Assembly (NCBI GenBank): GCA_030647325.1
Contig: JAUSJN010000054.1
Span: 1 to 47,408, forward strand
DNA length: 47,408 nt
From: Nanobdellota archaeon
GTDB lineage: Archaea > Nanobdellota > Nanobdellia > Woesearchaeales > GW2011-AR9
Direction: 5' to 3'
Part shown: piece after piece, positions 6,526 to 32,939 of the stretch
How the letters are laid out: every line of letters begins with the position of its first letter
Numbering within the stretch: position 1 is the first letter of the stretch
Notes under the pieces: model-generated
Told to the model about the DNA's origin: nothing
What the model saw: only the letters and a program-made list of their open reading frames with translations
The model's database searches: none
Translations under genes and position numbers: made by a program

Positions 6526-6554
6526 AATTTATTTTCTCTTTTCTGTCAAAATAT

Positions 6555-6815
6555 GACTGGGCTGACCATCGGTCAATAGACCGATGGCATGTTCGCTTCG
6601 CTCACAAGAAAATTGAAAACTATCAATTTTCTGTGCTGAAATTAAATCGTTGTTTCATTTCATGCACCGCCCAGCCTAATTTTGAGCACGCATGAAATTT
6701 GAAAAATATCAAATTTCAGCGCTGAAAATAAATCTTTGTTTATTTTCATGCGCAAGAAGTCCACACATTGATAAGTGGTTTGCTTGCAAACCACCACCCT
6801 ATAGAGTGGTGGAAT
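6555..6815 (+). ncRNA. Candidate structured RNA or paired-hairpin intergenic element, copy A
   Basis: Components:
- hairpin 6566-6587 (CCATCGGTC-AATA-GACCGATGG)
- conserved 17-mer CATGTTCGCTTCGCTCA at 6588-6604
- tandem hairpins at 6603-6635 and 6633-6667, closed by CTGGGC 6557-6562 / GCCCAG 6669-6674
- a second tandem hairpin pair at 6687-6753
- two mutually exclusive hairpins at 6775-6812
Related copies lie at 25293-25492 and 32720-32931 on the opposite strand. Confidence 0.45.
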
Positions 6816-6848
6816 TCTCCGCGTTTAAATCAACTCCAAAACAAAAAA

Positions 6849-24849: not shown

Positions 24850-25236
24850 CTAACTATCTTTCAATGTTACCTTCACTTTATCAGAGAATTCCAAGGGAAA
24901 TTCCTGCCGATATCTCTTGCCGTACTTCAAGGCCAGTTCCGCTTTATACAGTTCTTTTCCTAAATAGGCAGCATGCTCTAATCGAGAGATCATTTTCTTC
25001 TTGATGATAGTATTGTAGATCTCAATGGCATTACTTCCGTGGACCATTTTGGTGATGACATGCTTGTAGGTGCAGAAACCTGCTTCAATCATTTTTTTCT
25101 TCTCATCCACCCGAATCAAAAAATATCCTTTCGGATCAGCTCTCCATTCTTTGATAGGATCATGTTTAGCCTTGATGATCTCTTTGATTTTCTCTGTCTG
25201 CCGGTAAAACTTGTACTTTGGTTTAGCTTTAACCAT
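24850..25236 (-). CDS. Small conserved protein, DUF4346-like (tentative)
   Basis: The pattern WRADPKGYFLIRVDEKKKMIEAGFC...GSNAIEIYNTIIKKKMISRLEHAAYLGKELYKAELAL resembles the DUF4346 domain as I remember it. This assignment is unverified. Confidence 0.4.
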   Translation of the reverse strand: MVKAKPKYKFYRQTEKIKEIIKAKHDPIKEWRADPKGYFLIRVDEKKKMIEAGFCTYKHVITKMVHGSNAIEIYNTIIKKKMISRLEHAAYLGKELYKAELALKYGKRYRQEFPLEFSDKVKVTLKDS

Positions 25237-25292
25237 GAGCTGTATATTCTATTTATTGTTTATAATAGTTACGTTTTAGGATTCATTTAAAA

Positions 25293-25492
25293 TCTGCTTT
25301 TTCCACCAGTGTGTTCACCAGAAATAAGGAAAATACCTTATTTCTGTGCAGAAAAGCAATAGTTTTTGCTTTTCTTGCACTGGTGGTAAATCGTTGATTT
25401 CACATTAGTTGGAAAAAACAGGGTCCGAGAAAACCGCCCTGAGCGAAGCGAACATGCAGCTGGTCTATTGACCAGCTGTGGGTGGTTTTCGA
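25293..25492 (-). ncRNA. Candidate structured RNA or paired-hairpin intergenic element, copy B (consensus orientation on the minus strand)
   Basis: Components:
- tandem hairpins at 25316-25380, enclosed by CCACCAGTG / CACTGGTGG
- TGAGCGAAGCGAACATG at 25440-25456, the exact reverse complement of the 17-mer in copy A
- hairpin CAGCTGGTC-TATT-GACCAGCTG at 25457-25478, enclosed by AAAACCGCCC / GGGTGGTTTT. Confidence 0.45.
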
Positions 25493-25566
25493 TTGACTTC
25501 AATAAATAATGTTACAAATACTTTTATAAATGATAAGTGCGTTAATATCCAAAAAAAGGTGAATAC

Positions 25567-25755
25567 ATGTCTGAAATTCGTTATCTTTGCACGGGGAGTT
25601 GCGGCCAGATGGTCACCAGAGAAACCTACCTGCAGGGACGGAAGAAATGCAATGACAAATCCTGTGACAGTTTTAGCTCTGCGTTAGAGCGTGGGGAATA
25701 CTGTTCGCAATGCAATACCAGTTTTGATGAAGGCGAGGATCACATCTGTATATGA
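25567..25755 (+). CDS. Small Cys-rich (zinc-ribbon-like) protein, 62 aa
   Basis: Contains C-x3-C (CTGSC), C-x4-C (CNDKSC), C-x2-C (CSQC) and HIC. A TATA box (TTTATAAA) lies at 25523-25530. The stop codon overlaps the pepF start (ATGA). Confidence 0.55.
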   Translation: MSEIRYLCTGSCGQMVTRETYLQGRKKCNDKSCDSFSSALERGEYCSQCNTSFDEGEDHICI

Positions 25756-32676: not shown

Positions 32677-32719
32677 CTGTCAGGAAAGAGAAACTAAGTT
32701 TAAAGACTTTTCTGTTTGG

Positions 32720-32931
32720 GCAGATATCGTCGTCACAAGAAATCAAACAACGATTTGATTTCTGTGCAGAAATGAGGTAGTTTTCCGCATTTCTTGCATG
32801 GCCTTAAGGCGAGCCGAGAACAGCTCTTGCTTGGCACGTAATTCATTGATGCTTTCCCTCCAAATTTACTTGCGATGTTCAGCTAAAAAACAAAGAGAAA
32901 GCACGAGGCGAGCGGCCAAGACGATATCTGC
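32720..32931 (-). ncRNA. Candidate structured RNA or paired-hairpin intergenic element, copy D (consensus orientation on the minus strand)
   Basis: A perfect 12-nt closing inverted repeat joins GCAGATATCGTC 32720-32731 with GACGATATCTGC 32920-32931. Tandem hairpins at 32734-32797 have loops identical to copy A when read on the minus strand (AAAACTA and TCGTTG). A degenerate TGTTC..GC.TCGC motif precedes them. Confidence 0.4.
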
Positions 32932-32939
32932 AAACGATT

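Follow-up and report, generated by a model that had tools for sequence, protein, structure and literature searches.

We analyzed 47,408 nt of DNA from a Nanobdellota archaeon (contig JAUSJN010000054.1, assembly GCA_030647325.1), and we refer to this whole stretch as the window. This part of a DPANN archaeal genome has a housekeeping character: it encodes ribosomal protein S6e, a P-type ATPase, FtsZ, ProRS and other proteins of this kind, and the DUF4346 and S6e proteins have their closest homologues in entries named Woesearchaeota or Nanoarchaeota archaeon. The subject of this work is two structured elements of the window, i.e., element A (6544–6823, plus strand, 280 nt), located 3′ of the S6e gene rps6e, and element B (25293–25498, minus strand, 206 nt), located 56 nt upstream of the start codon of a small DUF4346-like gene (24850–25236) and on the same strand as this gene. 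An earlier note on this DNA had suggested that B could be a cis-regulatory leader of the DUF4346-like gene or an independent small RNA. Most likely, however, the feature has an ordinary explanation: A and B are mobile elements resembling palindrome-associated transposable elements (PATEs), they contain nested small repeats, and B is not a leader.

Both elements carry a 39-nt module. Read directly from the window, the reverse complement of 25440–25478 in element B is CAGCT-GGTCAATAGACC-AGCTG-CATGTTCGCTTCGCTCA, and positions 6566–6604 on the plus strand in element A read CCATC-GGTCAATAGACC-GATGG-CATGTTCGCTTCGCTCA. The 12-nt hairpin top and the 17-nt tail are identical in the two, and four of the five basal stem pairs are changed on both sides with pairing kept, which bears out the earlier reading of a module common to A and B, on opposite strands, with four compensatory pair changes. 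On the minus strand, the module of B (25440–25478) consists of a 9-bp hairpin, CAGCTGGTC-aata-GACCAGCTG, followed by the tail. The latter occurs exactly twice in the window; when up to three mismatches are allowed, 0.13 matches are expected there, and two or more were found in none of 100 shuffles.

Further stems surround the module and the remainder of element B. The module is enclosed by AAAACCGCCC/GGGTGGTTTT (25430–25439 and 25480–25489); on the minus strand, the 5′ strand of this stem reads GAAAACCACCC (25480–25490) and the 3′ strand GGGCGGTTTTC (25429–25439), and it covaries with GGCAGGGG/CCCCTGCC in the A-, J- and K-type copies introduced below. The stem had been described with one G-U pair. 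The stem itself is present, but the wobble is a G-T on the plus strand only, and on the module strand the same position is an A-C mismatch; relatives L022 and L030 have a perfect pair there. A separate stem, CCACCAGTG/CACTGGTGG (25304–25312 and 25378–25386), encloses both AGAAA hairpins of B, as had been claimed, and the 20-nt imperfect inverted repeat said to bracket this hairpin pair is likewise found as an outer stem, CTGCTTTTTCC/TGGAAAAAACAG (25294–25304 and 25410–25421). Folding of the element B region as RNA gave z-scores of −9.0 and −7.9 on the two strands, and folding as DNA gave −8.7, in each case far more stable than shuffled sequences.

To survey the family we scanned one genome per species with the exact pattern GACC-N5-tail. 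This yielded 24 loci, i.e., 23 true copies in 11 DPANN (Woesearchaeota/Nanoarchaeota) bins and one chance match in coding sequence. Bin JAHJSS01 holds eight copies and JAGVZN01 four; copies are near-identical inside one bin, and contigs often end at copies. When metagenomes were scanned with the tail alone, about 20 further distinct copies were present among the matches listed, amid many chance matches. All copies were retrieved with patterns requiring the exact 17-nt tail, and among about 1.2 Mb of fetched loci no tail with up to four mismatches was found after a hairpin. Some element-bearing bins (L014, L015, L016, L022, L023) are titled 'uncultured Methanosarcinales archaeon'. Two of the related loci, L022 and L173, come from one such assembly, CAYJQD01; the synteny of L022 with the window and the S6e of L173, which is 87% identical to that of the window, point to a taxonomic mislabel, at least for that assembly.

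The canonical element is 128–160 nt long and has two halves and no conserved open reading frame (ORF). Half 1 reads TGTCAAAA-[stem]-A-[9-bp hairpin]-CATGTTCGCTTCGCTCA-[stem′]-TTTTGAGCA, and in half 2 a closing stem surrounds a second palindrome, which is of the CCACC...GGTGG type. We distinguish four subfamilies, labelled A, J, K and B. Element A of the window is an A-type copy with the same plan as L016 and L027, and element B is a B-type copy like L022 (144 nt) and L030, to which it was aligned in order to define its boundaries. Across 28 distinct copies, hairpin pairs 2–6 and the enclosing stem show many double-sided changes, including CG to TA or AT, AT to GC, GC to AT and GC to CG. Since such changes recur in 28 distinct sequences, the compensatory pattern is general across the family. 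The proposal that A and B represent one structured element in two copies on opposite strands, its structure kept by compensatory changes, is upheld. According to the earlier note, an exact repeat at many loci lacking further covariation would have reduced the module to mere repeat DNA; the module does occur at many loci, but with further covariation. Copies L057 and L146 have, in place of the 5′ half of their first hairpin, a pair of short hairpins, TGTCAGGAATAC-gat-GTATTCCTGAGCA and CAGAAATC-gag-GATTTCTGAG, which reuse the TGTCA.../...TGAGCA end motifs and may be minimal family units.

Element A consists of a 156-nt canonical part and two nested 62-nt units, seen as extra blocks in the alignment with the canonical copies L016 and L027, which are without nested units. 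Unit 1 (6606–6667, plus strand) is a double hairpin located between CAC and CAC, and unit 2 (6690–6751, plus strand) is a nearly palindromic double hairpin. In element B, about 65 nt (25313–25377, plus strand) are extra relative to L022 and lie in the loop of the left-end near-terminal palindrome CCACCAGTG/CACTGGTGG (25304–25386, minus strand), which is uninterrupted in L022, i.e., CCACCAGT-aaatat-ACTGGTGG. This double-hairpin repeat, AGAAA..TTTCT-GTGC-AGAAA..TTTCT, belongs to family D1, and in L030 a nested unit occupies this place in reversed orientation. Nested units travel with their host element, the first unit of A occupying one and the same position in the window, L014 and L067. They also occur solo, in L012, L016, L029 and at locus C of the window (32738–32794, plus strand), outside any module-bearing element.

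The AGAAA hairpin pairs hence appear to be a second, smaller mobile repeat of 62–65 nt that nests in these elements, similar to SMR-A of Haloquadratum (PMC3119063). Like SMR-A, the units are small, have inverted ends and no clear target duplication, and reside inside a host element, where the unit of B sits within a near-terminal palindrome, as with SMR-A. They differ in being shorter (about 62 versus about 110 nt), in having no sequence relation to SMR-A and in also occurring solo. The solo unit of the window, 57 nt in length, lies in the intergenic region 32677–32939 inside another inverted repeat, GGGCAGATATCGTCGTC (32718–32734) with GACGATATCTGC (32917–32928), which seems to represent a further repeat family. 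Of the eight J-type copies of JAHJSS01, three (L019, L024, L026) have a different nested hairpin pair, AAAAACC-cg-CGGTTTTT and AAAAATCC-caca-GGATTTTT, at the GAGCA/TGCTC centre, which suggests that there are several families of small nesting repeats.

Scarless insertion, without target-site duplication, was observed in two independent events for which filled and empty sites could be compared. Locus L170, whose S6e is 95% identical to that of the window, presents the empty site of element A: ctcttttc is followed directly by tttaaatcaa, continuing as tttaaatcaattcc. In the filled site of the window, ctcttttc is followed by TGTCAAAATATG...GGAATTCTCCGCG and then by tttaaatcaactcc; the element starts with TGTCAAAA and ends with CTCCGCG, after which comes tttaaatcaa. 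The empty site of L170 hence delimits element A as exactly 6544–6823 and shows that it was inserted without target duplication. The second event is found next to the DUF4346 gene, where locus L001 is filled (ctgaaa, then CGCGGAG...TTTTGACA, then cat) and L004 and L006 are empty, again without target duplication. Further differences in occupancy were found between relatives: L022, syntenic with 16.9–21.9 kb of the window, carries a B-type copy where the window is empty, and L173, from the same assembly as L022, is without element A after its S6e gene. Two other loci with an S6e 95% identical to that of the window (L169, 1920–2033, and L171, 615–766) contain a different hairpin-rich insertion a few bases downstream of the A site, with the motifs CAGAAATCTCCAAAC..GTTTGGAGAT, CTGAGCA and CAGAAAGA..TCTTTCTG. 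Because these loci carry another insertion near the A site, we regard the intergenic spot after S6e as an insertion hot spot.

The ends of the A and B types have no terminal inverted repeat (TGTCAAAATAGG versus the reverse complement CGCGGAGTATTC). Both types contain two near-terminal palindromes, i.e., CCACCGGTC..GACCGGTGG and CCACCACTC..GAGTGGTGG in the A type and CAGCTGGTC..GACCAGCTG and CCACCAGT..ACTGGTGG in the B type; in element A the second of these is CCACCAC-cctataga-GTGGTGG (6791–6812, plus strand). The palindromes at the two ends are similar to each other and lie in direct orientation. In the K type (L061, L083, L055), CCACCGGTCAAATAGACCGGTGG is present in both halves with the same asymmetric loop, AAATA. 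Since both the sequence and the loop orientation are the same, the K-type palindromes are direct, not inverted, repeats.

Flanking sequences are constrained on one side only. Read on the module strand, the right flank is TTT[CTA]A in 11 of 15 A-type copies and TAT[TA]A in three, TT[TC]TAA in all three B-type copies and AT[AT]T in all eight J/K copies, and the left flank is unconstrained. Beside a ...CGCG or ...CAGA end, the flank is T[TA]T[TCA]A in nearly all A/B-type copies. The strand opposite the module accordingly reads 5′-T-N-A-A/T-A, then the element, which ends in TTTTGACA-3′. For element B, this putative transposition or 'top' strand is the plus strand: the pentanucleotide TAAAA (25288–25292) directly precedes TCTGC...TTGACT (25293–25498) and resembles the target motif (transposon-associated motif, TAM) of IS200/IS605 insertion sequences, in keeping with the flank constraint across A/B-type copies. 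The presumed top strand folds strongly as single-stranded DNA (z −8.7 and −9.0).

From these properties we conclude that A and B probably represent two subfamilies of a mobile DNA element that encodes no protein, is found in Woesearchaeota-type DPANN archaea and has the anatomy of a PATE, i.e., a non-autonomous member of the IS200/IS605 group. We make this assignment because the elements are multi-copy and have no coding capacity, insert without target duplication, lack a terminal inverted repeat in the A and B types, contain near-terminal palindromes as direct repeats and are flanked on one side by a motif of 4–6 nt. PATEs have been described as elements without inverted terminal repeats, with near-terminal palindromes, no target duplication, a targeting oligonucleotide of 4–6 nt and palindromes that are invaded by small repeats (PMC3119063). 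As in the PATEs of Haloquadratum walsbyi and other IS200/IS605 hosts (PMC3119063, PMC10055086), the two palindromes found here are similar and directly oriented, the targeting oligonucleotide occurs on one flank only, copies are homogeneous in a genome and subfamilies heterogeneous between genomes, and smaller repeats frequently invade the palindromes. IS200/IS605 elements have stem-loop ends and pentanucleotide TAM and transposon-encoded (TEM) motifs (PMC10055086). The ends of IS608, ISDra2 and ISGst resemble those described here in their 5′-side pentanucleotide target (here T-N-A-A/T-A) with a similar motif at the other end (here TGACA), in their subterminal stem-loops and in their scarless empty sites.

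Elements of the IS200/IS605 type move as single-stranded circles, which are cut and joined by a Y1 TnpA that recognizes the folded end hairpins, and they insert 3′ of the TAM without duplication (PMC3119063; PMC10055086). By analogy, a Y1 (HUH) TnpA encoded elsewhere would fold the strand opposite the module into left-end and right-end hairpins and cut it on both sides, on the left after the 5-nt target motif T-N-A-A/T-A and on the right after TGACA. The single-stranded circle excised in this way would be pasted, with no duplication of the target, 3′ of a further occurrence of the motif. On the top strand, the 39-nt module would then be the right-end hairpin, with the conserved single-stranded stretch TGAGCGAAGCGAACATG located 5′ of it. 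In IS200/IS605 elements, the DNA 'guide' and the contacts with the transposase are located in this position, which would explain why the hairpin top and the tail are invariant and the stem base covaries. Copies between a stop codon and a T-rich terminator would probably be co-transcribed as structured 3′ untranslated regions (UTRs), as a by-product and not as the reason for their existence; that many copies lie there would follow from the target motif, which on the sense strand directly behind genes takes the form TTTNA.

Several observations weigh against this assignment. We detected no transposase by Pfam among the 30 window proteins scanned and no tnpA or tnpB gene beside any copy. No full-length parent element was recovered, since cases with only one end within 450 nt were all contig ends or divergent halves, and a tblastn search with an approximate IS200 TnpA query returned only an unrelated bacterial integron contig, L112. 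The family is likened to PATEs by anatomy, not by sequence, in a DPANN host and with no related insertion sequence carrying tnpA/tnpB identified. On the presumed top strand, the left-end hairpin is 11 nt from the end and the right-end hairpin 19 nt, the reverse of IS608, and IS608-style pairing between guide and cleavage site, inspected by eye in three subfamilies, followed no consistent rule. Unlike in PATEs, the right-end hairpin is located inside a further covarying stem with a 17-nt invariant bulge, and the J and K types have a short end symmetry of 8–9 nt, TGTCAAAA/TTTCTGACA, as would also be expected of a classical miniature inverted-repeat transposable element (MITE). Moreover, the strand that tends to be the sense strand of neighbouring genes is the module strand and not the presumed top strand (11 versus 3). 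The evidence that the tail is conserved, finally, is its identity between A and B of the window and its occurrence in four subfamilies, divergent in other respects, that were selected with the tail pattern.

Whether B could act as a leader or riboswitch can be judged from its locus. The gene order of M3 peptidase and small Cys-rich ORF next to the DUF4346 gene is kept in relatives. The small ORF (25567–25755), which codes for 62 aa and has no match in Pfam, shares some sequence with the beginning of the M3 peptidase gene, the two overlapping there, and is conserved in L001, L004 and L006. A comparison with orthologous regions had been recommended in the earlier note, and we found that L006 (92% protein identity) and L004 (86%) have a short intergenic region without element B, in which TTTATAAAAGTATTT is kept on one side and, on the other, the TATA-like box AACTATTATAAA some 22 nt upstream of the ATG. 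In L001 the spot of element B is occupied by a related family member in opposite orientation, in which the module is replaced by 18 unrelated bases. In the window, the TATA-like box (25250–25261, minus strand) lies downstream of element B, and it is kept in the window, L001, L004 and L006. Because B is upstream of this conserved box, archaeal promoter geometry would place it outside the expected 5′ UTR of the DUF4346 gene. A leader or riboswitch would be conserved at the orthologous position and lie inside the 5′ UTR; element B is not conserved in this way and would not lie there. Its position 56 nt upstream on the coding strand would fit such a role, but orthologs at 86–92% identity lack the element and retain the box between its site and the ATG, the same element type adjoins unrelated genes, and element A sits 3′ of rps6e. 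We consider a leader function extremely improbable.

The idea that the family encodes functional noncoding RNA deserves somewhat more weight, yet we still regard it as unlikely. The elements might be stand-alone omega-RNA-like guide scaffolds that extend from the right end into the flank and serve a TnpB/IscB-type nuclease in trans, or some other structured small RNA, with the invariant tail and hairpin top as protein- or target-binding sites. Tail and hairpin top are indeed identical between subfamilies whose other stems differ completely, stem covariation is extensive, genes around the copies show a modest orientation bias, and PATEs often encode omega-RNAs that act with TnpB in trans (PMC10055086). 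The copies, however, share no promoter-like sequence, have unrelated flanks and occur in all gene contexts; the L001 member does without the module, and no tnpB was seen near any copy. Base-pair statistics do not favour RNA either. We counted five G-U and three A-C pairs, plus two more A-C in L154, and thus found no strand asymmetry; such counts can neither separate RNA from DNA nor pick a strand, the absence of bias being what is predicted for a DNA palindrome and no support for an RNA-only constraint. A search of the whole window against Rfam 15 gave no match at the gathering score, searches with B, A and the canonical copy L020 gave only noise at E up to 10, and a tRNA/tmRNA scan of the window found none. 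The independent small RNA of the earlier note is thus not supported, and neither did the module turn out to match a known RNA, a result that the note had named as fatal to its claim. The element family is not in Rfam, and our literature searches on DPANN MITEs and noncoding RNAs found no description of it, only a general MITE census. A variant that combines mobility with RNA function, and that we offer as a speculation with a small chance of being right, is that the right end doubles as transposase site and omega-RNA-like guide scaffold read from the TGACA end; dozens of gene-less copies would then program a TnpB/IscB-type nuclease encoded elsewhere in these very small DPANN genomes.

Other types of mobile or domesticated repeats were weighed in the same way. 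If the elements were classical cut-and-paste MITEs, a DDE transposase would act on their terminal inverted repeats. The J and K types indeed end in TGTCA(A/G)AAA ... TTT(T/C)TGACA around a central palindrome, GAGCATGCTC, and a Woesearchaea genome with about 105 MITEs per Mb is listed in the census (PMC11602168). A MITE is defined by terminal inverted repeats together with target-site duplications; here no duplication was found in either filled/empty comparison, the A and B types have no such repeat, the inner palindromes of both halves are direct repeats, and the flank motif is conserved on one side only. We therefore doubt this origin even more than an RNA function. A slightly lower probability still is given to a domesticated repeat similar to bacterial repetitive extragenic palindromes (REPs) and their doublets (REPINs), kept by a single-copy REP-associated tyrosine transposase (RAYT) and serving the host, e.g., as mRNA 3′-end stabilizer or terminator. 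As in REPs and bacterial interspersed mosaic elements (BIMEs), palindromic units form mosaics that are intergenic or located after genes, stems carry compensatory changes and mobilization is presumed to be of HUH type. The elements are palindrome doublets and BIME-like mosaics of modular hairpins, and many copies begin 13–58 nt past the stop codon of a co-oriented gene. REPs, however, are about 35 nt long with a GTAG head, and the elements described here are larger and more complex, vary between close relatives and insert precisely at a 5-nt motif, a direct match to IS200/IS605 transposition; among the sequences analyzed no RAYT was seen. The post-gene location may also have a simpler cause. 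In module sense, both neighbours were co-oriented in 11 cases and anti-oriented in three, a weak bias (about p = 0.06). A T-rich stretch is typical after archaeal genes, and the T-rich target motif, TTTNA on the sense strand, offers a simple explanation of both post-gene location and orientation bias. A first archaeal domesticated repeat system of the REPIN/RAYT type would be an alternative to the guide-RNA idea, and a less likely one. ORF clustering in L007–L030 found no ORF that recurs beside copies in three or more loci.

The 17-mer tail was also evaluated outside the DPANN family. We rejected it as a universal motif: scans gave 18 matches in viral contigs and at least 120 in metagenomes, mostly coding or unrelated and in a number close to chance for 17 nt. 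Among the matches listed, a hairpin stands beside the 17-mer in only two further families. The 17-mer is also found in a bacterial integron attC-like family (L112, L137, L141, L142, L155), GCCTAAC ... GTTAGGC, which recurs every 0.6–0.9 kb with CATGTTCGCTTCGCTCA conserved centrally; L112 also has an IS200-type TnpA flanked by CCGGCTTTAGCCGG hairpins. Since the number of independent 17-mer matches is close to the chance expectation, we take the occurrence in attC-like sites as coincidence. An attC identity of the DPANN elements was likewise rejected, for their ends are TGTCAA... and ...CCGCG or ...CAGA, not R″ RYYYAAC ... R′ GTTRRRY, and copies are dispersed singly. Another family is GC-rich (L049, 4290–4360; L063, 7165–7240; L087); in it, aatcc separates a hairpin, CTTAAGGCC..GGCCTTAAG, from the 17-mer that follows. 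The least comfortable 'chance' match is found in a GC-rich, phage-like viral contig (IMGVR_UViG_3300021560_000037; L038, 5015–5053), where a 9-bp hairpin, CATCGGCGC-act-GCGCCGATG, precedes the 17-mer and 25 nt are identical to window positions 6580–6605, including the 3′ hairpin arm.

The compensatory changes between A and B hence stem from a mobile repeat family and should not be taken to indicate that this locus holds a riboswitch or a small-RNA gene. In the small DPANN genomes, about which little is known, a well-delimited and structurally conserved PATE-like family with a nested repeat marks strain-level insertion polymorphism and explains some of the contig breaks in genome bins. The family also provides a handle for finding IS200/IS605-type machinery in these archaea. 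Should a guide RNA be encoded in the right end, this would represent a stand-alone omega-RNA gene in compact form.

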